DNA of 42,943 nucleotides from Pseudomonas phage phipa4. Under the pieces are notes generated by a model. It was given only the letters and a program-made list of their open reading frames with translations. It did not search any database and was not told the DNA's origin. Below are positions 1,881-42,818 of this stretch, piece after piece. The position numbers were made by a program, and so were the translations under genes. Position 1 is the stretch's first letter, and the number at the start of each line of letters is the position of its first letter. The stretch lies in sequence record OK539825.1, one strand, 5' to 3'.

Positions 1881-2056
1881 ACAGCGAAGCGCGGCCCAAT
1901 GTGGGCAAGCCGGTTCGCGTGTTCGCGTCGTCGTACCTTGGCCTTCGGGCGCAGTATCCGAACGCCTTTGCCATCCAACCAACCCGGACAGGCTATCAAG
2001 CCGTCGTAATGATTGAAGAAGGGGCGAACAATGTACGAAATCGAAACCGGCCATAA
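1877..2056 (+). CDS. hypothetical protein (59 aa), uncertain
   Basis: ATG overlaps the upstream stop (ATGA coupling). No clear SD. Overlaps the start of the interrupted ORF. Confidence 0.3.
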   Translation: MNSEARPNVGKPVRVFASSYLGLRAQYPNAFAIQPTRTGYQAVVMIEEGANNVRNRNRP

Positions 2057-2273
2057 AGTGCCGAAGCAACGTCGCAAGGCTGGAAGCGTGCCGAAGGCCG
2101 TTTAACAGGCGTTCAACGACTACGCCGAAGCGTATAAGGCCGTTTACGGCGTTCGCCCGCTGTCGTTCACGTATGACCGCGAAAGCGGCTTTATTCGTGT
2201 CGAAAGTAGCGGCGGCGTAAGCGTCGCAAGGCTGCGCGAAATGACGAAACAGCTTCGTTACCGCAAAGGCTGA
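2031..2273 (+). pseudogene. ORF interrupted by an in-frame TAA (24 codons + TAA at 2103-2105 + 55 open codons)
   Basis: Strong RBS GAAGAAGGGG before ATG 2031. Downstream segment has phage codon usage but no in-frame start. Confidence 0.4.
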
Positions 2274-2293
2274 AAAAAAGTTGTTCGCAGGTA

Positions 2294-2322
2294 TTGACGA
2301 AGCGTCGAAGGCGTCGTACTAT
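2294..2322 (+). promoter_or_regulatory. early promoter, conserved family copy 2
   Basis: TTGACG-17 (AAGCGTCGAAGGCGTCG)-TACTAT. A-tract and GTTGTTCGCAGGTA upstream. Confidence 0.55.
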
Positions 2323-2356
2323 AGACCCATATCAACGAACACAAGGAACCGCCGAA

Positions 2357-2539
2357 ATGAAAATTCTTCTTCAAACAAGCCCGAATGTCGGAACATTCCA
2401 ACACGAATTCGAAAGTATCATGCTTTTAATCGGTTGGCAAAAAGGCGCTTTGGCTATTAGCGAATGCGGTTCGTACTATCTGAACGAAGACGTTTCGCGC
2501 CATTGGCAAGCCTTCCTTTTCAACAAAAACGACGCCTAA
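2357..2539 (+). CDS. hypothetical protein (60 aa)
   Basis: ATG 2357 with AAGGAACC RBS. Leader resembles the one at the window end. Confidence 0.5.
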   Translation: MKILLQTSPNVGTFQHEFESIMLLIGWQKGALAISECGSYYLNEDVSRHWQAFLFNKNDA

Positions 2540-2589
2540 TCAACCAAGCGCGCCGGGCGCAACCCGGCATTTTTGAAGGAGTTATAACA

Positions 2590-2964: not shown

Positions 2965-2970
2965 CCAAAG

Positions 2971-3005
2971 CGCCCCGGCTGTTGTATAGTCGGGGCTTCT
3001 TTCTA
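2971..3005 (+). terminator. putative rho-independent terminator
   Basis: GCCCCG...CGGGGC stem followed by TTCTTTCT. Confidence 0.45.
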
Positions 3006-3024
3006 TCATGGGGAACGAAAGAAC

Positions 3025-3246
3025 ATGGCGGACGAAGTAGACCAAACAGCCGACCGAATAGAAAACGAAGTAAGCTTTACGGTCGGCGAACTTTGCCGAA
3101 AGGCCGCAGCTATACCCGCAGGCCGTCCGGGCGAATGTGATTTTTGCGGCGAACACTTCGCGCGCGTCGTTGAAGTGACCGACCCGCATACGGGCGAAGT
3201 CGTCGAAAGCTGCGGTCGCTGTCGTGACCGAAGGGGCATCGCATGA
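3025..3246 (+). CDS. TraR/DksA-type C4 zinc-finger protein
   Basis: CDFCGEHF...17 aa...CGRCRD (Cx2C-N17-Cx2C). Confidence 0.5.
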   Translation: MADEVDQTADRIENEVSFTVGELCRKAAAIPAGRPGECDFCGEHFARVVEVTDPHTGEVVESCGRCRDRRGIA

Positions 3247-3752
3247 CGCCCGCAACCCTTGCCAAGTCTGGCACCGAACACGCGCACCAAACGGCGCTTT
3301 TTGCCTATGTCGCGGTCGCATACTTGCACGGCTTCGACGTTGCCGACGAATGGTGCAAGACTGGCGTAATCCCGCAAACGACGCCGTACAGCATGTACGA
3401 AACGCCGACCGTGCCCGCGCTTGAATGGTTCCACGCCATACCGAACGGCGGCAGTCGCGGCGACGACGACAAGTCCCGCAAGATACGCGGCGCGCAGTTG
3501 AAGGCCGAAGGCGTGCGGCAGGGCGTAGCCGATACGTTCTTGCCTTGGCCGAATGCCGGATGGCATGGCCTTTATATCGAAATGAAGAAGCCGACCGAAC
3601 GTCCGAAGTCGGAAACCGCAAAGGGCGGCGTATCGGACGAACAACGAAGCTTCGGCGAATACGCAAAGCGCGTCGGCTATGGTTGGGCCGTCTGCTATGG
3701 TTGGGAACACGCCGTAACGACGTTGCGAAGTTATATCGAATGGGGTTCGTAA
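3243..3752 (+). CDS. VRR-NUC domain nuclease
   Basis: FHAIPNGGSRG...GxxxGxxD...IEMKKP motif block typical of VRR-NUC. ATGA overlap with the upstream gene. Confidence 0.6.
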   Translation: MTPATLAKSGTEHAHQTALFAYVAVAYLHGFDVADEWCKTGVIPQTTPYSMYETPTVPALEWFHAIPNGGSRGDDDKSRKIRGAQLKAEGVRQGVADTFLPWPNAGWHGLYIEMKKPTERPKSETAKGGVSDEQRSFGEYAKRVGYGWAVCYGWEHAVTTLRSYIEWGS

Positions 3753-3955
3753 TGGGGCTTTCGTGTCTTGCCTGCGAACTTACCCGCGCCCGGTTGAAAG
3801 CGGCGGCGCTGGCCCTTGTGGGCTGGCCCCTTGACCGCATCGCCGGGCATTTGTCCGTTTGCTATGGCGAACGGTATTACGTCGAAGGCGGCAAGCTGTA
3901 TCGCGCGTCGAAGTTGCCGCCGTATCAACCGTACTTGATAAGGGGCGAAGAATGA
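3740..3955 (+). CDS. hypothetical protein (about 67-71 aa)
   Basis: ATG 3740 or 3752, in frame with track ORF 3425..3955. Confidence 0.4.
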   Translation: MGFVMGLSCLACELTRARLKAAALALVGWPLDRIAGHLSVCYGERYYVEGGKLYRASKLPPYQPYLIRGEE

Positions 3956-4131: not shown

Positions 4132-4156
4132 CGTAGCTTCGAAGCTGTCGTACACT
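4128..4156 (+). promoter_or_regulatory. early promoter, conserved family copy 3
   Basis: TTGACG-17 (TAGCTTCGAAGCTGTCG)-TACACT. Spacer holds the perfect 12-bp palindrome AGCTTCGAAGCT. Confidence 0.6.
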
Positions 4157-5268: not shown

Positions 5269-5726
5269 TCTACGTACCGCGCGAAGCCCTGTCCAAATGG
5301 GACGCGCGATTTATTGAACTTGCCGAACACGTCGCCGGATGGTCGAAAGGGCCGCGTAAGCGCATCGGCGCGGCCATCGTGCGCCCGAATCGGTCTATTG
5401 CGTCGCTTGGGTACAACGGCCCGCCGCGCGACTTCGACGACGCCGTTTTTCTGAACATGACGCGCGACGAACAACACGCGGTCGTAATTCATGCCGAAGA
5501 CAACGCAATTCGACAGGCTGCGCCGGGCGAAGACTTGTCCGCGTGTACGCTGTACGTTTCGCCGCTGTTTCCGTGCGCCATTTGTGCCGACCGCATCGTT
5601 CGGGCCGGTATCCGTCGCGTTGTCGCTTATTGTGGGCATATATCGCCAGACTGGCGCGCGTCTGCCGACGAAGCCGAACGCATCTTTAACCAAGCGGGCG
5701 TCGAATGCCTGTTTACAATGGATTAA
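5259..5726 (+). CDS. dCMP (deoxycytidylate) deaminase
   Basis: HAEDNAI and PCAICA zinc-binding motifs of the cytidine/dCMP deaminase family. GTG start. Confidence 0.75.
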   Translation: MSIIYVPREALSKWDARFIELAEHVAGWSKGPRKRIGAAIVRPNRSIASLGYNGPPRDFDDAVFLNMTRDEQHAVVIHAEDNAIRQAAPGEDLSACTLYVSPLFPCAICADRIVRAGIRRVVAYCGHISPDWRASADEAERIFNQAGVECLFTMD

Positions 5727-5731
5727 CGAAC

Positions 5732-6118: not shown

Positions 6119-6149
6119 TGAACCATCGAAACGAACAAAGGTGCCCACA

Positions 6150-7681: not shown

Positions 7682-8219
7682 CGAACTTCCTTGGGTAGCC
7701 GAAGCCCGAAAGTATATCGGCCTTCGCGAAGACACTTCGAAGACTTCGCATAACCCGAAGCTTCTTGCCATGCTTGACCGCATGGGCGAATTTTCCAACG
7801 AATCCCGCGCTTGGTGGCACGACGACGAAACGCCTTGGTGCGGACTGTTCGTCGGCTATTGCTTGGGCGTAGCCGGGCGCTACGTCGTCCGCGAATGGTA
7901 CAGGGCGCGGGCATGGGAAGCCCCGCAGCTTACGAAGCTTGACCGGCCCGCATACGGCGCGCTTGTGACCTTCACGCGAAGCGGCGGCGGCCACGTCGGT
8001 TTTATTGTGGGCAAGGATGCGCGCGGAAATCTTATGGTTCTTGGCGGTAATCAGTCGAACGCCGTAAGTATTGCACCGTTCGCAGTATCCCGCGTAACCG
8101 GCTATTTCTGGCCGTCGTTCTGGCGAAACAAGACCGCAGTTAAAAGCGTTCCGTTTGAAGAACGTTATTCGCTGCCGCTGTTGAAGTCGAACGGCGAACT
8201 TTCGACGAATGAAGCGTAA
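7674..8219 (+). CDS. endolysin, cysteine peptidase (TIGR02594/CHAP-NlpC-like)
   Basis: WCGLFVGYC (catalytic Cys) and GGHVGFIV (His) motifs. Lies between holin and spanins. Confidence 0.6.
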   Translation: MNNELPWVAEARKYIGLREDTSKTSHNPKLLAMLDRMGEFSNESRAWWHDDETPWCGLFVGYCLGVAGRYVVREWYRARAWEAPQLTKLDRPAYGALVTFTRSGGGHVGFIVGKDARGNLMVLGGNQSNAVSIAPFAVSRVTGYFWPSFWRNKTAVKSVPFEERYSLPLLKSNGELSTNEA

Positions 8220-8536: not shown

Positions 8537-8732
8537 ACCGCAAAGCATCGCCGACGCAGTGCAAACGAAGCCCGTTGTAATCGACACGGCTTGCAAATGG
8601 GTTGCACCTATTTGGATTTCGAAGGCCGACGGCTTGACCGCTGGCACGGCCCGGCAAATTCTGAACCATAACGAAGCCGTCGAACGCAATTGCGGGCCGC
8701 AGTCGCCGCCTAAATCTGCGGACAAGCCTTAA
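8451..8732 (+). CDS. o-spanin (Rz1-like lipoprotein), overlapped architecture
   Basis: Signal peptide with lipobox LLSGC. Three Cys. Starts inside the i-spanin gene in another frame and extends beyond it. Confidence 0.6.
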   Translation: MRKKLLPIILLLTTTKLLSGCATNGRATEPQSIADAVQTKPVVIDTACKWVAPIWISKADGLTAGTARQILNHNEAVERNCGPQSPPKSADKP

Positions 8733-8789
8733 CAGAACGCGGGGCTTGCGGTATAGTGAAGCCAACGACGTATAAACTAGGCCGACACT

Positions 8790-9278: not shown

Positions 9279-10854
9279 TACGAACGGGGCGAAACCTGTT
9301 CCGTATGAAGTCGTATTTAAGCCCCTTCCGGGGTCGCAGACTATCGCCCTTTGTTCGATGGCAGCGCATACGCTGTACGAAGGCGCACGCGGCCCCGGTA
9401 AGACGCTTACGCAGCTTATGCGCTTTTATCGTAACGTCGGCAAAGGTTACGGCAAGTTCTGGCGCGGCGTTATCTTCGATTTGGAATTTGACCATTTGGG
9501 CGGCCTTGTTGCCGAATCGAAAAAATGGTTCGGCGATAACGGAAAGCTAAAGGACGGCGGCAAGTTTTACGAATCAACGTCGGCTTATAAATGGGTTTGG
9601 CCGACAGGCGAAGAACTGTTGTTTCGGCACGTTAAGAAGCTGTCGGATTACGAAGGCTTCCACGGTCACGAATACCCGTTTATCGGTTGGAACGAACTTA
9701 CGAAGCATCCAAGCGGCGACCTTTACGACAAATTTATGTCGGTCAACCGCTGTACGTTCGACCCGATAAAAGACACGCCGAAAGACCCGAAAACCGGGCG
9801 CTATTTGACGCCGAACGGCGAACCGCTGCCGCCTGTAAAGTGCGAAGTATTCAGCACGACGAACCCAAGCGGCCCCGGTCACAATTGGGTAAAACGTCGC
9901 TTTATCACGATTGCCCCGCGCGGCACCGTAGTTCGTCGCGAAATTCAGATTTACAACCCGGCGACCGAAAAAGAAGAAACGCACGTAATTAGCCAAATCG
10001 CTATCTTCGGTTCGTATAAGGAAAACCCATACCTTCCGGCTTCGTATATCGCCGAACTGGAAAGTATCAAAGAACCGAACTTGCGGAAGGCTTGGCTTTA
10101 CGGCGATTGGGACGTTACCGCAGGCGGCGCAATCGACGACCTTTGGCAATCGCATATACACGTTGTACCGCGCTTCGTCATTCCGCCAAGCTGGCGAATC
10201 GACAGAACATACGACGACGGGTCTTCGCATCCGTTTAGTGTGGGATGGTGGGCGGAAGCGGACGGCACCGAAGCGACTATAGTTCTTTCGGATGGCACCG
10301 AATTTACGTTTTGCCCGCAACCCGGTTCGCTTATTCAGTTGTTCGAATGGTACGGATGCGCGAAAGACGAAAAGGGCGAATATATACCGAATAAAGGTTT
10401 GAAGCTTTCGGCGTCGAATATCGCACAAGGCATAATCGACCGCGAAATTTCGCTAATGGCGAACGGCTGGATTTTGTCGCAGCCTTGGCCCGGCCCTGCC
10501 GACAACCGCATTCGCCAAGTAATCGACAGCGAACTAGACACGACCGAAAAGCTTATGTCGAAGAAGGGCGTTCGTTGGACGGAATCGGACAAGTCGCCGG
10601 GTTCGCGCGTAATCGGGTTGCAGCTTTTCCGCGACCGGCTAGAAGCGTCTGTTAATCGCGAAGGGCCGGGTATATACTTTATGTCGAATTGCGTTGCAAG
10701 TATTGATTTGCTGCCCACACTGCCGCGCGACGAAAAGAAGATTGACGACGTAGACACAACCGCCGAAGACCATTGTTACGATATGGTGCGTTATCGCGTA
10801 TTGAAAGGCGCGAACAAAGCGGCAGCGAAATTCAAACTTGTTATGCCAACTTAA
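9259..10854 (+). CDS. terL: terminase large subunit
   Basis: Walker A GARGPGKT near the N-terminus. 531 aa. Followed by portal gene. Confidence 0.7.
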   Translation: MHALAIDTNGAKPVPYEVVFKPLPGSQTIALCSMAAHTLYEGARGPGKTLTQLMRFYRNVGKGYGKFWRGVIFDLEFDHLGGLVAESKKWFGDNGKLKDGGKFYESTSAYKWVWPTGEELLFRHVKKLSDYEGFHGHEYPFIGWNELTKHPSGDLYDKFMSVNRCTFDPIKDTPKDPKTGRYLTPNGEPLPPVKCEVFSTTNPSGPGHNWVKRRFITIAPRGTVVRREIQIYNPATEKEETHVISQIAIFGSYKENPYLPASYIAELESIKEPNLRKAWLYGDWDVTAGGAIDDLWQSHIHVVPRFVIPPSWRIDRTYDDGSSHPFSVGWWAEADGTEATIVLSDGTEFTFCPQPGSLIQLFEWYGCAKDEKGEYIPNKGLKLSASNIAQGIIDREISLMANGWILSQPWPGPADNRIRQVIDSELDTTEKLMSKKGVRWTESDKSPGSRVIGLQLFRDRLEASVNREGPGIYFMSNCVASIDLLPTLPRDEKKIDDVDTTAEDHCYDMVRYRVLKGANKAAAKFKLVMPT

Positions 10855-15689: not shown

Positions 15690-15754
15690 CGAACGGACGG
15701 CCTGTCGCTTATTGTGGGCAGGCCGTTTCAACAACGAACTAAGGAGTCTTCGCA

Positions 15755-30825: not shown

Positions 30826-30852
30826 TCAAAAGAACGACAGCGCGGCGGTTTT
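30814..30852 (+). terminator. putative terminator embedded in convergent gene ends
   Basis: CCGCCGC...21-nt loop...GCGGCGG followed by TTTT. Stops of + and - genes abut at 30825/30826. Confidence 0.3.
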
Positions 30853-32877: not shown

Positions 32878-32888
32878 GCGAAAGCCCC

Positions 32889-34031
32889 TTAAAACGGTAT
32901 GTCGTCTTCGTAATTGTCCGACGGATTATGCGTCGCTTCGCTGCCAAGGTCAAGACCCATAAGAACGCCGCGCAGGTTTTCGCCGAAAAATACGACCTTG
33001 TTTGCGTCCGGTGCGAAATGCGCTTTCTTAAACGCATGTTCGACGGAAAGAAGCAACTTCGCAGAAAAGCCCATTCGTTCCGGCAAGCCTTCGATTTTGT
33101 ACGTCGAAGCTTCTTCTTTGTGCATCTTCGACAAAACCGCGCCGTCGTCGAAGAATACGTTTCCGTTCGGGCTAAACGACTGAATCGCGCGAACGCCGTT
33201 GTAAAAGTCGTCGGGAACCGGCCAAGGGTTCAGGCCGTCAACTTCGAAAACGACTTGATAATTCGGGTAACGTTCGCCGTAAAGCTGCGTTTTGATAAAC
33301 GCCCCGTTTTCGAAATAGAACGTTGCCGACGACGCCGAAAAGCCGAAGCCGGTAAGGGCCGGGCCAGCCTTGGCGACAGCGACCGCCGCGCACTTCGGAA
33401 GCATCATGCCGGGCGGAAGGTCGATACCGTGCCACGCTTCCAGCAAGGCCGCCCCGTTGGTCGCGACGGCGCTTCCGGCTTGCAGCAAGACGGCGGCATA
33501 GGTTGCATTCGGTGCGCCGTCTGTCGCAAGCCCTGCGACCGCAGCGAAGGCCGTTTTAATCCTGTCGTCGATTGTGGCGCATTGCGGGTCGGGCGCGGTA
33601 ATCGGTACGTCGTCGAAGCCCACACAAGGCACCAACGCCCGGAACGCGCCAGACGATACGGCAAGGGCGTTCGCGGTAAGCTGCGTAATCGACAGTTCTT
33701 CGCCGACCTTCGACAGCGCGTCGATAAACTGCAACGTATGCGGGCACGCTACCAAGTCTTCTTCGATAGGATGCGCAACGGTCAAAACCCCGTCGGAAGC
33801 CGCCGCCCAATTGTGGGCAATATGCCCGAATTGAACGTTCGTCGGCCCGGCCTTTTTCTGCGCGATGGCAACGAACTTCAACGCCGCCAAAAGCGACGCC
33901 GCAGGGCTTGGCCCCTTGGCTTTGTTCTTTCCGGCTGCGGCTTGCTTTCGCGCCCTTGGCTTGCGCTTCGTCGGTTCTGCGGCTGGCGCTTCGTCTTCGG
34001 GCGGAAGCGGAATATTACTGTCGATTTTCAT
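32889..34031 (-). CDS. DNA polymerase sliding clamp (beta/DnaN-like) with basic N-terminal extension and SSB-like C-terminal tip EDDIPF
   Basis: AVATNGAALLE compares with E. coli beta TVATDGHRLAV. IKTQLYGERYPNYQVV compares with KLVDGRFPDYRRV. Ends ...NYEDDIPF. First ATG 34031 has GAAGAAGGGG RBS (track start 34052 is TTG). Confidence 0.5.
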   Translation of the reverse strand: MKIDSNIPLPPEDEAPAAEPTKRKPRARKQAAAGKNKAKGPSPAASLLAALKFVAIAQKKAGPTNVQFGHIAHNWAAASDGVLTVAHPIEEDLVACPHTLQFIDALSKVGEELSITQLTANALAVSSGAFRALVPCVGFDDVPITAPDPQCATIDDRIKTAFAAVAGLATDGAPNATYAAVLLQAGSAVATNGAALLEAWHGIDLPPGMMLPKCAAVAVAKAGPALTGFGFSASSATFYFENGAFIKTQLYGERYPNYQVVFEVDGLNPWPVPDDFYNGVRAIQSFSPNGNVFFDDGAVLSKMHKEEASTYKIEGLPERMGFSAKLLLSVEHAFKKAHFAPDANKVVFFGENLRGVLMGLDLGSEATHNPSDNYEDDIPF

Positions 34032-34242
34032 TTTCGGCCCCTTCTTCGTCAAGTTTTGAAATTGCCGCTTGAAGATAGTTCGCCAAGTCTAGCGTTTCTT
34101 CTAGCGCGTGTTGCAACCAATCGCGAAGCGACAACGGGTTATTATCCGTCGTTACGCCGTATTTTGCAAGTCCAACGATTGAACGTTGCAACAGTAATTC
34201 GCGGTTCTTTTCTACGTTTTTGTCAGGCGATGTTTCGGCCAT
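34015..34242 (-). CDS. hypothetical acidic protein (75 aa)
   Basis: ORF between helicase and clamp genes. Confidence 0.4.
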   Translation of the reverse strand: MAETSPDKNVEKNRELLLQRSIVGLAKYGVTTDNNPLSLRDWLQHALEETLDLANYLQAAISKLDEEGAENENRQ

Positions 34243-34246
34243 TTGT

Positions 34247-35911
34247 TCACCATTCAGCGGAAAGAACTTCGGGATACTTTTTGTTCACCCATACGCGAAC
34301 ACGGCGCGGCGTGCGAAGTTCTGAAACACGCTGCAAAGCTTGATAAGTCGTCGGCGGCGGTTCTTCGGCGTGCCGCTGCCGCCACCAATCGCGCGAACGC
34401 TTCGCAGCAAGCCCCGGATGTTCAAGCATTATAAATTCGTTGAACATTTGGAAGCCGCAAAAGTAACTAACTTTAATCATCGGCGGCTTTGTTAGGTTTC
34501 CGTTTGCGTCGCGCTTTTCGTGCAAATTGTAAAGTACCTTTTGAACGTCGAAATATTCGACTATCGGCGCGTCGCTTCGCAGCGGTTCCAGCGTTCCGGC
34601 AGTTGCAAACAACTTCGTTTCAAAAGTAAATTCGGTGCCGCAGTTGATACACTGCCGGGCCGCAGCGTGATTATATACGCCGCATACGTCGCAAATACGA
34701 ACGGGCGCGTCGCCGCCGCCTTTGCCCGGTCTGTTCGGAATTCGCGGGTCGTTGATTGGGCCAAGCCTTCGAACGTTTCCGGCGAAGTCCGCGTACAGAC
34801 AATTTTGTTTGCCGGTATCCGGCGACGGTCGGGTTCCGCGTCCCAACTTTTGAACGTGTTTGCCCGGCGATAGCGTCGGGTTCAAATCGCCGATAAAGTC
34901 AATCGGTGGATGGTCGAAACCCGTTGTAAGTTTCTGCCCCGATACCAAGCCGCGAAGTTCGCCAGCTTTGAAAGCGCGCAAACGTTCGGTATTGGTCTTC
35001 GAAGGCAACTTGGAATGAACCGGCAAAACTTCCAAGCCGTAAGACTGAATTACGTTTGCGACGTGTTCGGTATTATCAATGCCAGTTGCGAAGATAAGCC
35101 AAGTCGAACGGTCGTAAGCTATTTCGGTCATTTCCCGAACAGCGTTAAAAACAACTTCGTCGGTATCTACGGCGGCTTCTAGTTGCTTGCTATTGAATTC
35201 GCCAGCCGTTACGCCTACTTTCGACAAGTCGATTTCGGTTCGCGTCGGCCTTGCGATAAGCGGCGACAAGTAGCCTTCGGCGATAAGTCGGTTAAACGAT
35301 TCGACGCCGGTTATATCGTAACAAATGTCGGTAAAAATTCCGTTGTCGGTAATAAGCCCCATTTTCATTCGATAGGGCGTTGCCGTGAATCCGATAACTT
35401 TAAGATGCGGGTTAATCTTGCGAAGTTCGGCGATAATGTATTGGTAATGCGAATCTTCCTTGTCGCTTAACAAATGGCATTCGTCGATTAACAGCAAGTC
35501 GCGCCAACCGAAATGGCGAAGATGCGCCGGGCGTCCGTCGTCTTCTTCAAGCCCGCGTTTAATCGCAGGCGCTACGGACTGAACGCCGCCGAATACGATT
35601 GGCATAATCATATCGCGGGAATTCAAGCCCGCCGAATAAATGCCCATTGGCGCGGTCGGCCAAATCGACATAAGCTTTTCGGCGTTCTGTTCGATTAGTT
35701 CTTTAACATGCGTAAGCATCATTATTCGCTGATTCGGCCAGTAACCGAAAATTCGACGAATAAAGTTTGCAATTACGACCGACTTTCCGGTTCCCGTCGG
35801 CATAGCGACGACGGGGTTTCCGACCCCGCCGCGCTGGAAATAATCGAATATTGAATATTCCGCTTCGTCTTGATACCAACGCGGAACATAAATATTAGAC
35901 ATTCTTTGCAA
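34247..35911 (-). CDS. SF2 DEAD/DEAH-type DNA helicase with C-terminal zinc ribbon
   Basis: Walker A AMPTGTGKS. Motif II DECH. CDVCG...CINCG ribbon. Confidence 0.7.
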   Translation of the reverse strand: MQRMSNIYVPRWYQDEAEYSIFDYFQRGGVGNPVVAMPTGTGKSVVIANFIRRIFGYWPNQRIMMLTHVKELIEQNAEKLMSIWPTAPMGIYSAGLNSRDMIMPIVFGGVQSVAPAIKRGLEEDDGRPAHLRHFGWRDLLLIDECHLLSDKEDSHYQYIIAELRKINPHLKVIGFTATPYRMKMGLITDNGIFTDICYDITGVESFNRLIAEGYLSPLIARPTRTEIDLSKVGVTAGEFNSKQLEAAVDTDEVVFNAVREMTEIAYDRSTWLIFATGIDNTEHVANVIQSYGLEVLPVHSKLPSKTNTERLRAFKAGELRGLVSGQKLTTGFDHPPIDFIGDLNPTLSPGKHVQKLGRGTRPSPDTGKQNCLYADFAGNVRRLGPINDPRIPNRPGKGGGDAPVRICDVCGVYNHAAARQCINCGTEFTFETKLFATAGTLEPLRSDAPIVEYFDVQKVLYNLHEKRDANGNLTKPPMIKVSYFCGFQMFNEFIMLEHPGLAAKRSRDWWRQRHAEEPPPTTYQALQRVSELRTPRRVRVWVNKKYPEVLSAEW

Positions 35912-36992
35912 CCGCTGTAATTGGCGAATAAGAATCGCAACCCGTAGCGATGAAATCGCCCGGAATTACGCCGTTGTGAACTTCGCAAAACCATTCGCCG
36001 TTTTCGACAGGGTTTGCGGCCTTGCAGCTTCGGCAGTTCTTTTCAGGAATCGCGCCCTTGTGGCAAATATCCTTCGCCGCGCAATATCCGCACTTGTGAA
36101 ACGTCGGATTATCCGACAAGCGCGGCGGCGCTTCCTGCGACAGAATGATTTGTTCGGCCTTTTCCTTCATTTGTTGGCCTAGCCGATGGTCTAGCTTTAC
36201 AACTTCGCAATGCAAGTCGTCGTCGTTCTTGTTAATGTTCAGATAAAGAACATAACGAAAACGATATTCGTTGCCATACGTCGAAGTTTGGGCGAAATGT
36301 TGCGGCTTACTTACTGCCATTCCTTGCGACATTAAGTCCGAAAAGCCCTTGCCTGTTCCGTTGGTCTTGAATTCCAGCAAAACAGGTTCGTCGATACCGT
36401 AGCGTTCGGGAAGCCGGGCGATACCGTCAAGCGACCCGCCGAAGTGCCCCATAACGCCGGAAATGCGGTATTGTGGGAATTCCAAGCCGTCGGCTTTCGC
36501 GCGTGCGACGTGTTGGGCGTAATACGGATTTTCATTCGTAATAAGGTCGCAGCCCAACGGCAGTTCTTCGCCTTCCTTCAATACGCCGTAACTGTCGCTT
36601 TCGGCTTGGTAAAAGAAGCCGTCGCGGTTTTCGTACCAACATTGAACGCCGATGCCTTCCAGCCATTCGATAAAGCGGGCTTCTTCACGGTGCCCACGAT
36701 TAAACAAGCGTTGCTTGCGACCGTCCGTCTTTTCCTGAAAACACCAACGGAAGATATACCAAAGCTTCCGCTTGCATTCGTCGCCAATCAACGACGCGCC
36801 AAGGTGCCGACGGTGCCCGCCGTCATACGTGCGAACGCAATATTCGTCTATATCTTCTTTAATGCGCTTTGCAAGGGCGGTTGCAACGCCGGGCGCGTCA
36901 AGGTCTACGCTTTGTTTTCCTGCGTCGGATTTCGTCGGCTGCGCGTCGTTCAGCGTTAATTGTGCGTTCTTCGCGTCTTTGCTGTTTTGCAT
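35895..36992 (-). CDS. PD-(D/E)xK nuclease, Cas4/RecB-like with Fe-S cysteine motif
   Basis: IDEPVLLEFKT (D..ExK). QHFAQTSTY (QxxxY). N-terminal Cys plus C-terminal CGYCAAKDIC (Cx2Cx5C). Confidence 0.55.
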   Translation of the reverse strand: MQNSKDAKNAQLTLNDAQPTKSDAGKQSVDLDAPGVATALAKRIKEDIDEYCVRTYDGGHRRHLGASLIGDECKRKLWYIFRWCFQEKTDGRKQRLFNRGHREEARFIEWLEGIGVQCWYENRDGFFYQAESDSYGVLKEGEELPLGCDLITNENPYYAQHVARAKADGLEFPQYRISGVMGHFGGSLDGIARLPERYGIDEPVLLEFKTNGTGKGFSDLMSQGMAVSKPQHFAQTSTYGNEYRFRYVLYLNINKNDDDLHCEVVKLDHRLGQQMKEKAEQIILSQEAPPRLSDNPTFHKCGYCAAKDICHKGAIPEKNCRSCKAANPVENGEWFCEVHNGVIPGDFIATGCDSYSPITAVAKNV

Positions 36993-37425
36993 CGTTCTTC
37001 ACCTTGCGCCGCATAAGGGCTTCGTAATTGTTCGCTAAATAATCCGCCGAAAGTGTCGCAACGTCTTTTAGTTGGTCTTTCGACAGCCAAGATATATGGC
37101 AATCCGACGGGTCGATTCCTAATTGGTTCGCAAGCCAATTGTACGCCTTCGCGCGCGACATTAAGCCGGTTTGCCAAAGGCGGTCGAATTCGTTATGGGC
37201 TTTCGTTCGAAGCTGGCGCGTTGTTCTGTCGGCCATACGACCCAACGGAATAAACGTGCCCGGATGGCAACCAACGGCGGCGCGACAATCATTGCAATAA
37301 TAAATGTGCGGCCAATTGCCATAAGTTCGCCCGTAAATCTTGTCGTTCGTTGTTAGTTCAATGTTAACGGAACAACAAGTATCGCATTGTTCGGGCGTCG
37401 GCAATGCGTCTTTTATTTTCGACAT
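36898..37425 (-). CDS. zinc-finger protein (175 aa) with basic C-terminus
   Basis: CDTCC...YYCNDCRAAVGCH. AAGGAG RBS. 95-nt overlap with the nuclease ORF start. Confidence 0.5.
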   Translation of the reverse strand: MSKIKDALPTPEQCDTCCSVNIELTTNDKIYGRTYGNWPHIYYCNDCRAAVGCHPGTFIPLGRMADRTTRQLRTKAHNEFDRLWQTGLMSRAKAYNWLANQLGIDPSDCHISWLSKDQLKDVATLSADYLANNYEALMRRKVKNDAKQQRREERTINAERRAADEIRRRKTKRRP

Positions 37426-37441
37426 AAGTTCGCATACTCCT

Positions 37442-37480
37442 TAAAAAGAAACGCCGGGGCCGGTTAAGACCCCGGCGAAT
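37442..37480 (-). terminator. rho-independent terminator after the SSB-like gene (minus strand)
   Basis: Minus-strand CGCCGGGG-loop-CCCCGGCG followed by TTTCTTTTT. Confidence 0.5.
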
Positions 37481-37503
37481 CTACGCCGCGACGGCGTTAC
37501 GCC

Positions 37504-38250
37504 TTAACGCTGGCCCCAAGGTGCCGCGCCTGCCGGTGCGCCGCCCTGCGCGGGCTGGCCGCCCTGTTGCCAGCCGCCGCCCTGCGCGGGCTGCTGTTGG
37601 GCGGGCTGTTGGGCAGGCTGGCCGCCCCATGCTGCGCCCTGCGGCTGTTGGGCCGGTTGCTGCGCGGGCTGTTGCTGTCCGCCCCAAGCGGCACCGCCTG
37701 CGGGCTGCTGCGCGGGTTGCTGCTGCGGTTGACCGCCCCAAGCCCCGCCGTTCTGGCCTTGCGGCTGCTGCGGCTGCTGTCCGAAGCCTGCGCCGCCCTG
37801 CGGCTGCTGTTGCTGCGGCTGCGCTGCCGGTGCGCCTGCGCCAGCCTTGCCCGGTTCGTTCCCGTTCATATCGAAGACCTTTTTAACTTCGGTATACTGC
37901 GGGTCGTTTTTCTGCGGGCCGACTTCGATAAGAAACGGCAGGTTGTGAAGCTGCGACGAATCGGTAACTTGGAACACGCCGATTACGTGGCAGATTGCCG
38001 AAAGCTGGCGATGCGCGATTTCGACGGTCTGTTGGTTGGAATGGTACAGGTTCAGGCGATAAGCGCCGGTCGTGCCCTGCTGCGGGCCGTCGATAATCCG
38101 CAAGTTCAGTTGCAGATAACCGCCGTCGTTCGCCTTGTTGGCCTTGACTTCGGAAGATTCGACGATTACCGGATGCTTGCCAATCGGCAGGCTTCCGACG
38201 CCTTGGGTCGGGTCGTACTGTTGGGCGTTGAACGCTTGGATAAGTTGCAT
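37504..38250 (-). CDS. SSB-like protein: about 130-aa N-terminal domain plus Gly/Gln/Pro/Ala-rich tail with AWGGQ repeats, no acidic tip
   Basis: Tail resembles the E. coli SSB linker (GGWGQPQQPQGG) but ends ...PWGQR. Neighbour of Sak4. AAGGTG RBS. Confidence 0.5.
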   Translation of the reverse strand: MQLIQAFNAQQYDPTQGVGSLPIGKHPVIVESSEVKANKANDGGYLQLNLRIIDGPQQGTTGAYRLNLYHSNQQTVEIAHRQLSAICHVIGVFQVTDSSQLHNLPFLIEVGPQKNDPQYTEVKKVFDMNGNEPGKAGAGAPAAQPQQQQPQGGAGFGQQPQQPQGQNGGAWGGQPQQQPAQQPAGGAAWGGQQQPAQQPAQQPQGAAWGGQPAQQPAQQQPAQGGGWQQGGQPAQGGAPAGAAPWGQR

Positions 38251-38308
38251 GATGTTTCACCTTTTCGAAAAGTCTTCGCCATTGGTTACGGCGGCGAAGT
38301 AAACCGTT

Positions 38309-39025
38309 TTATTGCATCGCTTTCGCGAACAATGCGGTAAGGTCGGGCTGTTCAAGTTCGTTAAGATTGCCCAAACGGTCGCGCGCGAAAACTTCGGGAA
38401 TTTCCTTCGTTCGCAGCGCCCGAACCGGCTTCGGCATTCCGGGTACGCTTGCTTCGCCCAAGTGCATAACGTTATCGAACAAATGCGGAACTTTAACGTT
38501 AAGGTCTTTGCCCGGAAAGAACGGGCGTTTTTGCATAATCGGTTCGTAAGTAACTTCGCCGTTCTGCAAAATCGTTTGCCGTCCGTTTTCGACAAGGGCT
38601 TGTTTCGCAATCATTACGATATGCTTTTGCGGCATGTAATACAAGTCGTTCGCGATTTTCATTACACGTTCGGACATATTGCCGTAAGCCTTCATACCGT
38701 GTTTAACCTTGCCCAATTCGTCGGCCAAGATAATTTCGGCGATGTTCGAAATACTGTCAATACCCAACGTATCGAAATTCGCAGCTTCGCGCGATTTCAT
38801 AAACCATTCGAAGAATTCGACGATAAGCGCGGGCGAATACGCTTCCCATGCGGGAACGTTCGAACCGCGCATGGACAGCATACCGGGTTCGGTCACAAGC
38901 AAAACCGGACGCGGCGCAGTATTGATAAGCGGCGTTTTGCCGGAACCGGGCGCACCGAATACGACGGACTTTACGCCGTAGCGGCGGGCCAGTTGCGACG
39001 CCGGTTTTAATTGCGACATTTGCAT
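38309..39025 (-). CDS. Sak4-like RecA-fold ATPase (single-strand annealing)
   Basis: Walker A VVFGAPGSGKT. About 238 aa RecA core only. ATG 39025 with GAAGGTG RBS. Confidence 0.55.
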   Translation of the reverse strand: MQMSQLKPASQLARRYGVKSVVFGAPGSGKTPLINTAPRPVLLVTEPGMLSMRGSNVPAWEAYSPALIVEFFEWFMKSREAANFDTLGIDSISNIAEIILADELGKVKHGMKAYGNMSERVMKIANDLYYMPQKHIVMIAKQALVENGRQTILQNGEVTYEPIMQKRPFFPGKDLNVKVPHLFDNVMHLGEASVPGMPKPVRALRTKEIPEVFARDRLGNLNELEQPDLTALFAKAMQ

Positions 39026-39079
39026 AACTTGCACCTTCGGGAATGGCCCCGGCGCTTGTGGGCAACCGGGGCGGGGTTG

Positions 39080-39520
39080 TTACTTCGACTTCGGCGCGAC
39101 AAGTTCAAGCGCGGGCGTTGCTTCCTTCGACGTTACAACTTCGTCGATAAGCTTACGGAACTTGTCGGGAAGGTTCTTGTATTCGGTAACGGAAAGTTCG
39201 GGCTTCCATTTTACCAAACGTTCGGCGATAAATTCGCCTTCGGGGCCGGTCTTTTCGATTTTCTGCAAAGCCTTTTCGACGGCTTCTTGGCCGCCTGCGA
39301 AGCTGCGGTTAATCTTGAAAACGGCTTTCAGCTTGTAACCTGCGCCAAGTTCGACGTTTTCGGTTCCTTCGCGCAAAGCTTCGGGGTCGAAAGCGAAAGC
39401 GTTTTTCAGAACTTCGGCGCGCAATGCGGATTCGGCTTCTTTCGCTGCGGCAAGCGCCTTCGTTGCTTCCTGCCATTGCAGAATCAAAGCGTCGCGGTTA
39501 GCGTTTTCGTTGAAAGACAT
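39080..39520 (-). CDS. hypothetical coiled-coil protein (146 aa), possibly Gp157-like
   Basis: ATG 39520 with GAAGGAG RBS. The longer track ORF (start 39784) overlaps the MazG-like gene and is less likely. Confidence 0.45.
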   Translation of the reverse strand: MSFNENANRDALILQWQEATKALAAAKEAESALRAEVLKNAFAFDPEALREGTENVELGAGYKLKAVFKINRSFAGGQEAVEKALQKIEKTGPEGEFIAERLVKWKPELSVTEYKNLPDKFRKLIDEVVTSKEATPALELVAPKSK

Positions 39521-39596
39521 TGTTGTTACTCCTTCGGTTGGGCCGCCGCACAATTGCGCCGGTATGTACGAACTATACGACGGCCCTTCGTTGCTG

Positions 39597-40154
39597 TCAA
39601 GCCCCTTTTTCAAGAATTTTTCGTTCTTCGAACAAGTCGCGATTGTTGGCGTCGAATTCGGTAAAGGCGTTCGGGAAGCGACGACGAAGCTTCGCGATGT
39701 TGACCGACTGCGCTTCGCCGAAGTTCGAACCAATGGCGCGCAGCAAAAGCGCATCGTACCAAAAGCCGTCGCCGACTTCTTCAAGCGCGTTAACAGCGTC
39801 GAAAGCTTCGCCTTCGGCTGCGGCGCTTAGGGCTTCCAACAGTTCGCCCGCTTCGGTCGCCTTGCCGATGATTGCATGAATGACGTTCACGGCTGCGGCG
39901 TCGTGTTCTGGATGGTCGGAAATCCATTCGGGAAGCTTCGCCAGCGTTGCCGCGTTGGCTTCCGGGGCCGGAACGCCAGTGTCGCGACCGTAGAACATGG
40001 CTTTCTTGATTGCGTCAAGCTTGTTAAGGGCTTCGACGGCTTCGGCGATGGTTTCGCGGAAGTAGGCCAGCGGCACGCGGTCGCCGTAATACTTATCCGA
40101 CGCGGTTACGTGCGCTTCTTCGATATAGTCGAAGGTCTTTGCGGGTTCGTTCAT
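39597..40154 (-). CDS. MazG-like nucleotide pyrophosphohydrolase domain protein
   Basis: EAGELLEA and EEVGDGFWY resemble MazG EExxEL/EELGDxLW motifs. Confidence 0.5.
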   Translation of the reverse strand: MNEPAKTFDYIEEAHVTASDKYYGDRVPLAYFRETIAEAVEALNKLDAIKKAMFYGRDTGVPAPEANAATLAKLPEWISDHPEHDAAAVNVIHAIIGKATEAGELLEALSAAAEGEAFDAVNALEEVGDGFWYDALLLRAIGSNFGEAQSVNIAKLRRRFPNAFTEFDANNRDLFEERKILEKGA

Positions 40155-40201
40155 ACGTTCACCTTTTGGAAGGGCCGGGCACCATGCGCCAGCGTTCCAG
40201 C

Positions 40202-40265
40202 ACTGTAACCGACCGCGCCTTTCCTGTCAACAACAATTGACAGCAAGCAAGAAGCCGGGTAAGCT
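40202..40265. promoter_or_regulatory. divergent promoters whose two -35 TTGACA boxes are the arms of a 20-bp palindrome (operator)
   Basis: CTGTCAA-CAACAA-TTGACAG at 40224-40243. + strand: TTGACA-17-TAAGCT (40237-40265). - strand: TTGACA-17-TACAGT (40230 down to 40202). Confidence 0.55.
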
Positions 40266-40291
40266 GCCCACAATTGCTAGAAGGTGGCGTT

Positions 40292-40480
40292 ATGGACATT
40301 GAAGAACTTACGAAGCGGGTAAAGAAAGCAAGCGTCGGGCGGTCGCTGCGGGCACTGGCCGCGCAATGCGACGTTTCGCACGAACTTATAAGAAAGCTTT
40401 TGCTTGCCAATTCTGCGCCGAACATAACGGCGACGACTTATAACAAGATTGACAAAGGGTTGGCAAAGAATGGACTTTAA
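40292..40480 (+). CDS. Cro/XRE-like HTH regulator (62 aa)
   Basis: RSLRALAAQCDVSHELIRKLL helix-turn-helix. GAAGGTGG RBS. Its stop overlaps the primase ATG. Confidence 0.6.
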   Translation: MDIEELTKRVKKASVGRSLRALAAQCDVSHELIRKLLLANSAPNITATTYNKIDKGLAKNGL

Positions 40481-42791
40481 CAACATTCCGCACGAAATGC
40501 GGATTTACCCGCAATGGGTCGTTTGGCGATACGAAGACACGGATTCAAAGAAACCGACGAAGGTTCCGTATTCAGCAAAAACCGGGCACCTTGCCAGCGT
40601 AACCGACCCGAACACTTGGGCCGGGTTCGACGAATGCGTTAACGCTATGTCGTCCGGTTGGTATGCCGGAATCGGTTTCGTATTGACTGAAAACGACCCG
40701 TATTCGTTTATCGACCTTGACGACACAAAAGGCGACCAAACGGCGCTTGACCGCCAAATAAAGATTTTTAACGAATTCAACAGCTACGCCGAACGGTCGC
40801 CTTCCGGTTCGGGGTTGCATATCATCGTTAAGGGCGCGATTCCGTCGGGCCGCCGTCGTTCGTTTATCGAAGTTTATTCTTCGCTTCGTTATATGACAAT
40901 GACCGGCGATATTTACCGTAACGCGCCGATTAACGATTGCAACGAACTATTAAACGTTCTTTGGGGCCAAATGGGGCAAGGTTCGGTCGCTGTCGCGCAT
41001 TATGCCGGACTTGCCGAAGCCAAGGAAACCGACGAACAGGTTTATAACCGCGCAGTCGCCGCAGCCAATGGCGACAAGTTCGCCGAACTGTACGCGGGCA
41101 AATGGGAAGGTATGTACGCTTCGCAGTCCGAAGCCGACTTTGCCTTGGTCGATATTATCGCGTTTTATACGCAGAACCGGGCGCAGATTTCGCGAATGTT
41201 TCGCGCGTCGGGCTTGGGGCAGCGTGACAAAGCAAAACGCGACGATTACGTTTCGTACATGCTGAACAAGTGTTTCGACCGCATGTTGCCGCCCGTTGAC
41301 GTTGACGGATTGCGCAACAAGCTAGACGAAGCAATAGCAAAGAAAGAAGCCGCCGACAGGGCCGCCGCGTTGTCGCAGAACAGCGAAGCGACGCCGCATC
41401 CGAAAGCCCCGGCCCCGAACCTTAACGAAGTTTCGAAGGTATACAGCGTGCCGCCCGGATTAGTCGGAGAAATCGCGCAATACATTTACGCACAAGCGCC
41501 GCGCCCGGTGCCCGAAATCGCGTTGGCCGGTGCCCTTGGTTTGGTCGCCGGTATTGTGGGCAGGGCGTACAACATTTCCGGCACTGGCCTTAATCAATAC
41601 GTTCTGTTGTTGGCACCGACCGGAACAGGTAAAGAAGCCATCGCAAGCGGCATTGACAAGCTAATGGCGCAGGTTATCCGAACTGTTCCCGCCGCGTCGG
41701 ACTTTATCGGCCCCGGCGAAATTGCTTCGTCGCAAGCGATTATTAAGTATATGTCGCGCGGGCCAACGTCGTTCGTTTCATTGGTCGGCGAATTTGGTAT
41801 TTACCTTCAACAAATGGCAAGCGTAAACGCACCGCCGCACCTTACCGGGCTTCGTCGCTTCCTGTTGGATGCTTACAACAAGTCGGGCGAAGGCAAGGTA
41901 CTTCGACCTTCGATTTATTCAGACAAGGACAAGAACACCGCCGCAGTGTTGGCCCCGTCCTTTACCTTGCTTGGCGAATCAACGCCCGAAAAGTTTTACG
42001 AAGGTTTGCACGAAGGTTTGATTTCCGAAGGTCTGTTGCCGCGTTTTACGATGATTGAATATCACGGCGAACGCCCGGCGTTGAATCCGGGGCACCTGTC
42101 GGCCCAACCTTCGTTCGAACTTATCGACAGGCTTTCGACCTTGTGCGCCCATGCGCTAATGTTGAACAGCCAACATAAGGCGATACACGTTCAAACCGAC
42201 GCAACCGCCCGCGAACTGTTCCAGCAATTCGACGCGCATTGCGACGCGAACATTAACACAAGCGACCGCGAAGTTCGGCGGCACCTTTGGAACCGGGCGC
42301 ACGTAAAGGCGTTGAAGCTGGCCGGAATTATCGCCGTCGGCTGCAACCCTTACGACCCGACCATTACCGCCGACGTTGCGTCTTGGGCGATTAACCTTGT
42401 CGTCGCCGACGTTCGAAACTTGCTTGCCCGGTTCGATGCTGGCGAAATCGGCATAGACAACGACGAAACGAAACAGCTTGCCAAGGTTATTTCAACGGTT
42501 AAAGATTTCGTCGTTTCACCTTGGCCGGACGTTGCGAAGTACGCAGGCGAAGGAATGTCCAACCTTCATTCGAACCGAATTGTTCCGTACAGCTACGTTC
42601 AACGCAGGCTTGCCGCTGTTGCCGTCTTTCGTAAAGACCGCATCGGCGCAAGCGGGGCAATCAAGCGCGCCTTGAAGACCCTTTGCGAACGCGGCGATTT
42701 GCAGGAAGTAAGCCGGGCCACACTGGCGAAGGATTACGGAACAAGCGCCGTTGCATACATGGTCGCGCATCCGGGCGTTTTCGGCCTGTAA
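40470..42791 (+). CDS. DNA primase (AEP prim-pol N-terminus) with C-terminal P-loop NTPase domain
   Basis: IYPQWVVWRYE. AEP motif I FIDLDD. Motif II SGSGLHII. P-loop APTGTGKE. ATG 40470 (track TTG 40449). Confidence 0.65.
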   Translation: MDFNNIPHEMRIYPQWVVWRYEDTDSKKPTKVPYSAKTGHLASVTDPNTWAGFDECVNAMSSGWYAGIGFVLTENDPYSFIDLDDTKGDQTALDRQIKIFNEFNSYAERSPSGSGLHIIVKGAIPSGRRRSFIEVYSSLRYMTMTGDIYRNAPINDCNELLNVLWGQMGQGSVAVAHYAGLAEAKETDEQVYNRAVAAANGDKFAELYAGKWEGMYASQSEADFALVDIIAFYTQNRAQISRMFRASGLGQRDKAKRDDYVSYMLNKCFDRMLPPVDVDGLRNKLDEAIAKKEAADRAAALSQNSEATPHPKAPAPNLNEVSKVYSVPPGLVGEIAQYIYAQAPRPVPEIALAGALGLVAGIVGRAYNISGTGLNQYVLLLAPTGTGKEAIASGIDKLMAQVIRTVPAASDFIGPGEIASSQAIIKYMSRGPTSFVSLVGEFGIYLQQMASVNAPPHLTGLRRFLLDAYNKSGEGKVLRPSIYSDKDKNTAAVLAPSFTLLGESTPEKFYEGLHEGLISEGLLPRFTMIEYHGERPALNPGHLSAQPSFELIDRLSTLCAHALMLNSQHKAIHVQTDATARELFQQFDAHCDANINTSDREVRRHLWNRAHVKALKLAGIIAVGCNPYDPTITADVASWAINLVVADVRNLLARFDAGEIGIDNDETKQLAKVISTVKDFVVSPWPDVAKYAGEGMSNLHSNRIVPYSYVQRRLAAVAVFRKDRIGASGAIKRALKTLCERGDLQEVSRATLAKDYGTSAVAYMVAHPGVFGL

Positions 42792-42818
42792 CGCGCGCCC
42801 GCCAGTGTGGGCAGAACG

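Follow-up and report, generated by a model that had tools for sequence, protein, structure and literature searches.

TGTGGGC in Pseudomonas phage phipa4 and its relatives: an evenly spaced, strand-polar heptamer that may be the template site of a phage primase-helicase

The sequence of Pseudomonas phage phipa4 (OK539825.1), which is referred to here as the window (42,943 bases, the whole stretch of DNA that was analysed), is a complete Septimatrevirus genome of the Pseudomonas phage 73 / Kakheti25 / TehO type. A first-pass annotation had drawn attention to the heptamer TGTGGGC, which is scattered through its coding and non-coding DNA, and the question raised by this word is what reads it. The heptamer proved to be enriched, evenly spaced on each strand, polar across the phage family and conserved in number while its positions turn over, and the core of the word matches the sites of primases that are homologous to a phage-encoded protein. 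From these comparisons we tentatively propose, at a little below an even chance, that TGTGGGC, in the longer form A-N-TGTGGGC-A, may be the site at which the phage's own NrS-1/pRN1-type primase-helicase recognises its template and may serve lagging-strand priming at Okazaki-fragment spacing.

Exact copies of TGTGGGC in the window number 29, with 17 on the plus and 12 on the minus strand. The over-representation described in the first-pass annotation is real and stronger than it was stated to be, but the accompanying site list was incomplete (21 of the 29 sites) and some of its positions were wrong by up to 19 nt ('1907' is 1900, '5641' is 5631, '10732' is 10713). A plus-strand bias of 15:6 was not recovered in the window, as the actual ratio of 17:12 is not significant by itself, and the 11-mer TATTGTGGGCA, said to occur exactly four times, occurs five times. 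The sites are given below; those that were missing from the earlier list are marked as new, and Samson, KL1 and RcSpartan are related phages.

1900-1906, plus strand: non-coding, 20 nt past gene 1605-1880
3817-3823, plus strand: sense, in gene 3740-3955
5631-5637, plus strand: TATTGTGGGCA copy; sense, in the dCMP deaminase gene
8006-8012, plus strand: TATTGTGGGCA copy; sense, in the lysozyme gene; new
12355-12361, plus strand: 12 nt ahead of the end of the portal gene
15713-15719, plus strand: TATTGTGGGCA copy; intergenic, in a hairpin loop (ACGGCCTG...CAGGCCGT)
18207-18213, plus strand: sense, in the major tail gene
19968-19974, plus strand: sense, in gene 19867-20301
21823-21829, plus strand: sense, in the tape-measure gene; new
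23735-23741, plus strand: sense, in the tape-measure gene
26035-26041, plus strand: TATTGTGGGCA copy; sense, in a tail assembly gene
30216-30222, plus strand: sense, in a tail protein gene
32080-32086, plus strand: antisense to the minus-strand DNA polymerase gene
33812-33818, plus strand: antisense to the minus-strand clamp-like gene
39057-39063, plus strand: intergenic, between minus-strand genes
41555-41561, plus strand: TATTGTGGGCA copy; sense, in the primase-helicase gene
42806-42812, plus strand: 15 nt past the primase-helicase stop codon, with a terminator-like hairpin directly after
787-793, minus strand: non-coding
6143-6149, minus strand: intergenic, 1 nt ahead of the start of gene 6150
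10713-10719, minus strand: antisense in terL; ortholog present in Samson and KL1
13885-13891, minus strand: antisense in the scaffold gene; new
16567-16573, minus strand: antisense in the adaptor gene
19564-19570, minus strand: new
21395-21401, minus strand: antisense in the tape-measure gene; orthologs in Samson, KL1 and RcSpartan; new
24231-24237, minus strand: new
27202-27208, minus strand: antisense in a tail assembly gene
30518-30524, minus strand: new
33618-33624, minus strand: sense in the minus-strand clamp-like gene; new
40266-40272, minus strand: divergent intergenic region, 20 nt ahead of the helix-turn-helix (HTH) gene that lies before the primase gene; ortholog present in KL1

An 8-bp hairpin (ACGGCCTG / CAGGCCGT; window 15690-15754) follows gene 15285-15689 and holds the site at 15713 in its loop; the ortholog of this site in Samson is located within an annotated terminator (8725-8760).

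Dinucleotide shuffles of the window contained on average 3.53 copies of TGTGGGC (maximum 9), and Markov models of order 1, 2 and 3 predicted 3.2, 1.5 and 1.2 copies, respectively, compared to the 29 observed. Shuffles and low-order models were used because maximal-order Markov statistics are uninformative for a word whose sub-words are also enriched. In addition, synonymous codons were permuted 1000 times within each gene, a procedure that keeps both the proteins and the codon usage. The permuted genes contained 3.7 +/- 1.7 coding sites (maximum 11) versus 22 in the window, which agrees with the earlier statement that codon usage alone does not explain the motif. Seven further sites are non-coding. 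The heptamer was found in all reading frames, most commonly as xxT GTG GGC (Val-Gly) in sense and as xxG CCC ACA (Pro-Thr) in antisense orientation.

It is hardly conceivable that codon usage, a recurring Val-Gly or Pro-Thr peptide or the odd composition of the genome brings about the enrichment. Eleven of the 13 sense sites do share the frame xxT GTG GGC, and the window does have extreme word biases. However, a codon or peptide artefact is ruled out by the codon-preserving shuffle; moreover, GTG is the rarest Val codon of the window (76 of 916), only 10 of 83 Val-Gly pairs are spelled GTGGGC, and the non-coding sites encode no peptide at all. Composition does not predict the observed count in any of the Markov models, nor can it account for the even spacing and the positional turnover described below. 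Proteins therefore do not cause TGTGGGC; rather, the sites sit where a protein tolerates them. Single-mismatch variants of the heptamer were not enriched in the window, and TGTGGGC makes up 29 of the 37 occurrences of TGTGG, which is otherwise avoided. At sites conserved among relatives, positions -2 (A) and +7 (A) are nearly invariant, so that the functional word is about A-N-TGTGGGC-A. Enrichment, codon shuffle, non-coding sites and flat near-cognate words together establish that TGTGGGC is selected for itself.

Enrichment in related phages, on which the first-pass annotation had made its claim depend, was confirmed in relatives infecting seven other hosts. In these genomes TGTGGGC was the top or near-top enriched word, and in several of them it was recovered de novo as the top 7-/8-mer. 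The hosts come from three proteobacterial classes, and the G+C content ranges from 45 to 56%.

Samson (Xanthomonas): 23 TGTGGGC
KL1 (Burkholderia): 27 TGTGGGC
RcSpartan (Rhodobacter, an alpha-proteobacterium; about 68% nucleotide identity): 26 TGTGGGC
IMEAB3 (Acinetobacter): 26 TGTGGGC
phiAxp-1 (Achromobacter): 26 TGTGGGC
Lucius (Sphingomonas): 22 TGTGGGC
FtMidnight (E. coli): 26 TGTGGGC (19 plus, 7 minus)

Among 88 metagenomic relatives (each of at least 9 kb, retrieved with TerL or the primase), 63 had a density of 0.3 sites per kb or more (mean 0.56; G+C 42-56%). Orthologous sites were found in Samson for 18 of 26 mappable window sites and in KL1 for 13 of 19, while in RcSpartan only 4 of 16 were orthologous even though its total is 26. 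Low orthology at a constant number implies that the number and spacing of the sites are held by selection and not by descent. As the same heptamer is found across this range of hosts and G+C contents, its reader is encoded by the phage and not by the host.

More distant relatives appear to use variants of the motif. The Variovorax phage VPv64 (L132) contains TGTGGTCA 12 times (1.15 expected; 8 plus, 4 minus). In L046, which has no TGTGGGC, TGTGGRA occurs 12 times (3.5 expected; 8 plus, 4 minus). The variants of L045 and L049 are TGTGGAC(A) and TGTGGGAG, respectively. In these variants the TGTGG core is unchanged and only the 3' tail differs, at a similar strand ratio of 2:1.

In the window, TGTGGGC recurs about every 2.5 kb on one strand and about every 3.6 kb on the other. 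Neighbouring plus-strand sites were 1251 to 5245 bp apart, with a coefficient of variation (CV) of 0.42 for these gaps (P = 0.00015), and neighbouring minus-strand sites were 1831 to 6648 bp apart (CV 0.35; P = 0.0004); random placement, taken as the reference, gives a same-strand gap CV of about 0.9 (0.92). When both strands were pooled the CV was 0.66, i.e. less regular than either strand, which means that regularity belongs to the single strands and points to a process acting on single strands. The strand changed 24 times between consecutive sites of the 29, which is far above expectation (P about 1.5e-4), and minus sites were never adjacent to one another; this alternation arises because each strand carries its own regular series. 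Minus sites were not preferentially paired with nearby plus sites, as 6 of the 12 lay within about 500 bp of one and about 5 would be expected to do so by chance (hand arithmetic).

The same regularity was seen in seven divergent complete genomes. Their terminase-sense strand carried 15-19 sites at a mean gap of 2.3-2.9 kb, and the gap CV of 0.25-0.49 was well below the random value in each genome (P <= 0.0016). Pooled, the 119 gaps had a median of 2300 bp (interquartile range 1837-2897 bp), and only four were below 1 kb. The minor strand was likewise enriched and regular. The widest plus-strand gap of the window (33812 to 39057) and the widest minus-strand gap (33618 to 40266) both fall in the leftward replication module, as the widest gaps also do in Samson and KL1, but not in RcSpartan.

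The strand distribution was then related to the orientation of terL. In eight genomes, 138 sites were located on the terL-sense strand and 67 on the other; the corresponding numbers in 63 metagenomic loci were 388 and 194, with an excess on the terL-sense strand in 58 of the 63. Even in the module that is transcribed opposite to terL, the terL-sense strand carried 29 sites versus 9, and the bias linked to terL was also present in IMEAB3, whose primase gene points the other way. A function as promoter, terminator or pause site was rejected, since the orientation of the sites does not follow gene direction and most of them lie within genes. These data point to a genome-wide polarity, for example of replication or packaging direction. 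The heptamer is not confined to one strand, however: the ratio is 17:12 in the window and about 2:1 across the family.

A phage-encoded protein with the features of a sequence-reading primase is present directly upstream of the last plus-strand site. It is the proposed reader of TGTGGGC.

40470-42791, plus strand: primase-helicase gene, 773 aa; archaeo-eukaryotic primase (AEP) Prim/Pol domain plus helix-bundle domain (HBD)
about nt 40482-41000, plus strand: AEP Prim/Pol domain, N-terminal, with the motifs IDLDD and ERSPSGSGLH
residues 219-263, nt 41124-41258, plus strand: HBD, Pfam PF22763

The first 177-257 residues of the protein match the NrS-1 Prim/Pol structures 6A9W, 6K9A and 7RR3 (E about 4e-26), and its N-terminus matches 7OLA (E 2.6e-33). 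The sequences IDLDD and ERSPSGSGLH, which the query shows in the alignment with 7OLA, are read as the AEP catalytic motifs and the 'SPS loop' as in NrSPol (PMC8718748). The match to PF22763, the HBD of the NrS-1 polymerase, had an E-value of 1.5e-8 and a score of 34.8 bits (curated cut-off 27.9), and a tblastn search with the primase-helicase matched the NrS-1 phage primase (E 2e-22). In this class of PrimPol the HBD is the part that reads the template. NrSPol requires 5'-GTG-3' in the template, is most efficient on GTGG/GTGA and begins synthesis at the base directly 5' of the site; it also recognises the 8-mer 5'-TTTGGTTA-3' (PMC8718748). The pRN1 primase (ORF904) primes only at a GTG located directly 3' of the initiation site, the model template being 5'-CTGTGCT-3' (PMC13469122). 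The invariant core of the phage motif, T-GTG-G, equals the GTG site of these homologous primases plus the 5' initiation base.

The primase-helicase is kept in VPv64, along with the superfamily 2 (SF2) helicase, the Cas4 nuclease, the single-stranded DNA-binding protein (SSB)-like protein and Sak4, while VPv64 is devoid of the VRR-NUC nuclease, DUF7303 and the family-B polymerase. The small HTH protein was rejected as a reader because it was not detectable in Samson, RcSpartan and other genomes that bear the motif. The first-pass annotation, which had named a binding site of a phage or host protein among its candidates, was right in general terms; the evidence favours a reader that it had omitted, the NrS-1/pRN1-type primase-helicase.

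We infer that the heptamer is read by the primase, that primers start at the site, and in which direction the forks run. In the proposed mechanism, an advancing fork would expose single-stranded DNA on which the HBD of the primase would bind 5'-T-GTG-GGC-3'. The first nucleotide of the primer would be a purine (A) pairing with the T directly 5' of GTG, and the primer would be extended toward the 5' end of the template, which for plus-strand sites means toward lower coordinates; plus-strand sites would thus serve rightward forks. A stretch of 43 kb would by chance contain the heptamer just about once or twice on each strand, so that priming sites would have to be supplied by the genome itself. 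Selection would retain about one site per 2-3 kb, a distance that matches an Okazaki fragment, on the lagging-strand template, and surplus sites would not be maintained and would decay, with even spacing and a near-constant number as the result. Since the terminase-sense strand carries twice the sites, most forks would run the same way as late transcription and, presumably, packaging. A rightward rolling circle would displace the plus strand, the 5' end lying distal, and feed processive headful packaging, and a terminase packaging toward higher coordinates would move toward the fork, which would be a productive arrangement. The minus-strand sites would be used by leftward forks in early theta or recombination-dependent replication. 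An excess of substitutions 5' of the sites, as a trace of the retention of error-prone primers, was not found; the 5' flank was instead more conserved. Constraint on the flanks (-2, +7) would be expected if the initiating nucleotides are specified.

Several observations weigh against the priming proposal. The spacing is Okazaki-like (2.3-2.9 kb, low CV), but both strands bear sites along the whole genome and no strand switch was seen at any putative origin. As the structural region of the window is nearly 1:1 by strand, forks in both directions would be needed. The directions of the forks and of packaging are assumed by analogy, in the case of packaging with other pac phages. A specificity of seven bases exceeds the three to four bases of the pRN1 and NrSPol GTG site, although NrSPol has its 8-mer as well, and the case for recognition of the heptamer by the primase is built on homology and on the motif match. 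In an alignment of the HBD, no residue tracked the motif variants, which were themselves picked after inspection of the data. Nor does primase identity predict the variant: the IMEAB3 enzyme is 34% identical and its genome keeps TGTGGGC, whereas that of VPv64 is 44% identical and its genome has a variant. Finally, the genome of NrS-1 (L138) has no dispersed site and contains TTTGGTTA only once, so that it offers no precedent for such a genomic signature. This single copy is located at 17198 on the minus strand, about 150 nt past the end of the primase gene, and fits a single origin-type site.

Some of the other explanations rest on other phage-encoded enzymes, three of which are encoded at the following positions.

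3243-3752, plus strand: VRR-NUC-like nuclease gene, candidate nickase; disfavoured
34247-35902, minus strand: SF2 helicase gene, overlapping the Cas4-domain exonuclease gene; candidate reader only of a phage-specific Chi-like signal
35895-36992, minus strand: Cas4-domain exonuclease gene, overlapping the SF2 helicase gene; candidate reader only of a phage-specific Chi-like signal

The sites might mark single-strand nicks introduced by a phage nuclease into virion or replicating DNA, as in T5, phiKMV-like and LUZ24/tf-like phages. We consider this unlikely, if still the strongest of the rival explanations, although short family-conserved motifs that mark nicks of unknown function are on record (PMC11780129; PMC4482731), nucleases are at hand in the VRR-NUC-like protein and the Cas4-domain exonuclease, and enrichment, conservation and positional turnover would suit any selected cis-site. 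The nick motifs of T5, phiKMV-like (CGACNNNNNCCTACTCCGG) and LUZ24/tf-like (TACTRTGMC) phages resemble TGTGGGC in being short and conserved within a family, and in occurring independently of genes, both inside and outside coding DNA. They differ in that they lie on one strand, number 4-13 per genome, are clustered and coincide with physically demonstrated nicks, whereas TGTGGGC is known from sequence alone. Hence the nick candidate of the first-pass annotation is borne out with respect to conservation and enrichment across related phages, but not with respect to distribution: published nick motifs are unevenly spread on a single strand (PMC11780129), and TGTGGGC is regular on each of two. VRR-NUC is moreover absent from VPv64, which has a polar variant motif, and present in L046, which lacks TGTGGGC, and is therefore disfavoured as a reader. 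Read pile-ups at nick motifs have been described for phiKMV-like and LUZ24-like phages, and none was mentioned for the PA73-like phage Ab26 (Essoh et al.; PMC4482731), which is a weak argument. Nicking also leaves unexplained why the invariant core is the recognition site of homologous primases.

There is a small probability that TGTGGGC acts as a Chi-like signal specific to the phage, which the SF2 helicase together with the Cas4-domain exonuclease would recognise on single-stranded DNA. Such a signal would switch end-processing to recombination-dependent replication with Sak4, or would protect phage DNA while host DNA that lacks the motif is broken down. If every end had to run into a site within a few kb, polar sites that are even on each strand would result. 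The genomes of the group are circularly permuted by headful packaging (PMC5313236), so that ends fall anywhere, and helicase, Cas4 exonuclease, SSB-like protein and Sak4 occur in every genome with the motif, VPv64 included. Yet nothing in the helicase and nuclease sequences suggests sequence recognition, and the GTG core is not predicted. To our knowledge, no phage-encoded enzyme recognises Chi, and we know of no report that cellular Chi sites are evenly spaced. It is similarly doubtful that the heptamer serves another phage DNA-binding protein whose action has a polarity fixed relative to packaging, such as translocation by terminase and portal, an ejection or internalisation motor, or the loading of a DNA-coating protein. 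The polarity tracks terL even in IMEAB3 with its reversed primase gene, and even spacing suggests a function per DNA segment. A strictly unidirectional motor, however, would have no need of a minor strand that is enriched and regular too, no candidate reader was found (the small HTH protein being undetectable in several genomes with the motif), and we know of no packaging or ejection system that uses dispersed internal sites. Very improbable is a host Chi or other host signal (KOPS, uptake sequence) copied by the phage. Chi of E. coli, GCTGGTGG, is like TGTGGGC polar, over-represented and read on one strand; unlike TGTGGGC, it is host-specific and enriched in the host chromosome. The host Chi-like hotspot offered in the first-pass annotation is refuted by the occurrence of the identical heptamer in phages of eight host genera among the alpha-, beta- and gamma-proteobacteria, whose Chi sequences differ, and by a small 50-kb sample of E. 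coli K-12 in which TGTGGGC was not enriched (7 versus 6.4 expected). FtMidnight, which infects E. coli, contains only 3 copies of GCTGGTGG (2 plus, 1 minus) as compared to its 26 of TGTGGGC, and the window contains none. The word GCTGGCGC, which we take to be the Chi reported for a Pseudomonas RecBCD, occurs, as a raw count, 5 times on the plus and 4 times on the minus strand of the window.

Compared with known primase sites, the closest likeness is to those of helix-bundle PrimPols (5'-GTG-3' for pRN1 ORF904, 5'-GTG(A/G)-3' for NrS-1), which are read by homologous enzymes and share the T-GTG-G core. The word in the window differs from them in its length of 7-10 bases, its over-representation and its even spacing per strand; GTG/CAC itself is under-represented in the window (0.29x). 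The primases T7 gp4 and T4 gp61 use GTC-, GTT- and GCT-based sites to make lagging-strand primers for Okazaki fragments of 1-3 kb, and here too sequence-specific primer starts are read on a single-stranded template. Their sites, however, comprise 3-5 bases, are frequent by chance, need no upkeep by the genome and are not even, and the enzymes belong to the DnaG/Toprim family, whereas that of the window is an AEP. DNA uptake sequences of Haemophilus and Neisseria are reported to be more evenly spaced than random. They are alike in that each DNA segment needs at least one copy, and unlike in that they occur in cellular genomes, serve the competence machinery, have no such strand polarity and are not a phage trait.

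The window shows further extreme word biases. GAG/CTC occurs 28 times on both strands compared to about 1434 expected (ratio 0.02), and GAGC, GAGG, CCTC and GCTC are lacking altogether. The surviving copies are GAGT (25) and GAGA (3), and 15 of them belong to the Shine-Dalgarno sequence AAGGAGT, located 9-12 nt (mostly 11) ahead of a start codon. Accordingly biased codons are those for Glu (841 GAA versus 2 GAG) and Leu (3 CTC). The GAG ratio is 0.00-0.05 in RcSpartan, Lucius, KL1 and Samson and 0.13-0.37 in FtMidnight, IMEAB3 and phiAxp-1, and no purge was seen in VPv64, L050 and L041. As it is common to relatives on different hosts, the purge is intrinsic to the phages. It is separable, as is GTG depletion, from the heptamer, since L050, L041 and VPv64 bear the motif or a variant without GAG depletion. 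Selection of this strength suggests that GAG is read by some protein, be it a nuclease, which may be encoded by the phage, or a reader of another kind. GATC is absent from the window (about 166 sites expected) and also from TehO, KL1, Lucius and FtMidnight, but not from Samson (ratio 0.55), phiAxp-1 and VPv64. In addition, TAG/CTA is present at 0.27x of expectation and TTCG/CGAA is over-represented 4.3x. With a slim chance, the heptamer could be a Chi-like mark of phage 'self' that tames the helicase-Cas4 pair or another phage nuclease, which would otherwise destroy DNA; combined with the purge of GAG/CTC and GATC, it would allow host DNA to be degraded without chemical modification of the phage's own. 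Self and non-self may in that case be distinguished by sequence content alone.

The gene map of the window was carried over from TehO; a 15-kb stretch of the window was 99% identical over its whole length to PA16c and TehO. Early and lysis genes followed by structural genes are oriented rightward (1-30825). The replication module runs leftward (30826-40154) and comprises genes for a divergent family-B polymerase, a clamp-like factor, the SF2 helicase, the Cas4-domain exonuclease, the SSB-like DUF669 protein, Sak4 and MazG. The small HTH gene and the primase-helicase gene are again rightward (40292-42791). The counterpart of TehO gp03 (1288-1530), at window 2031-2273, has an internal stop codon, so that it is either a pseudogene or uses another start. 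Window 743-1605 is unlike TehO, and no start could be assigned there for the TehO 'peptide chain release factor class I-like' gene; the sole long open reading frame in this region is 922-1284, with a TTG start. Imperfect GC-rich tandem repeats with periods of 18, 45 and 60 are located at 37540-37822 within the minus-strand DUF669 SSB-like gene (37504-38250). Nothing bearing on TGTGGGC was found in the tandem repeats and tRNAs of the window.

Full-text searches and several papers on PA73-like phages, KL1, Loki, Rhodobacter phages and nicked phages yielded no mention of the motif, its spacing or the avoidance of GAG, and no comparable map of primase sites was found in the searchable literature. 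Sequence-specific primases are known as such, but as a rule they use sites too short for a genome to have to encode them; a conserved, evenly spaced and polar map of a heptamer in phages of three proteobacterial classes would be new. Whatever the mechanism, the architecture (even spacing, 2:1 polarity, turnover at constant number, lineage-specific 3' tails) appears to be undescribed.

If the priming proposal is true, a group of siphophages with genomes of about 43 kb, infecting Pseudomonas, Xanthomonas, Stenotrophomonas, Burkholderia, Achromobacter, Rhodobacter, Sphingomonas, Acinetobacter and E. coli, would carry a conserved, evenly spaced and strand-polar map of lagging-strand starts. Okazaki initiation and fork direction would then be readable from the phage sequence and could be checked by synonymous mutation. 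The primase-helicase would be a natural heptamer-specific PrimPol, of interest for primer-free amplification, and the sites would impose an extra constraint on the recoding or engineering of therapeutic Pseudomonas phages of the genus Septimatrevirus.

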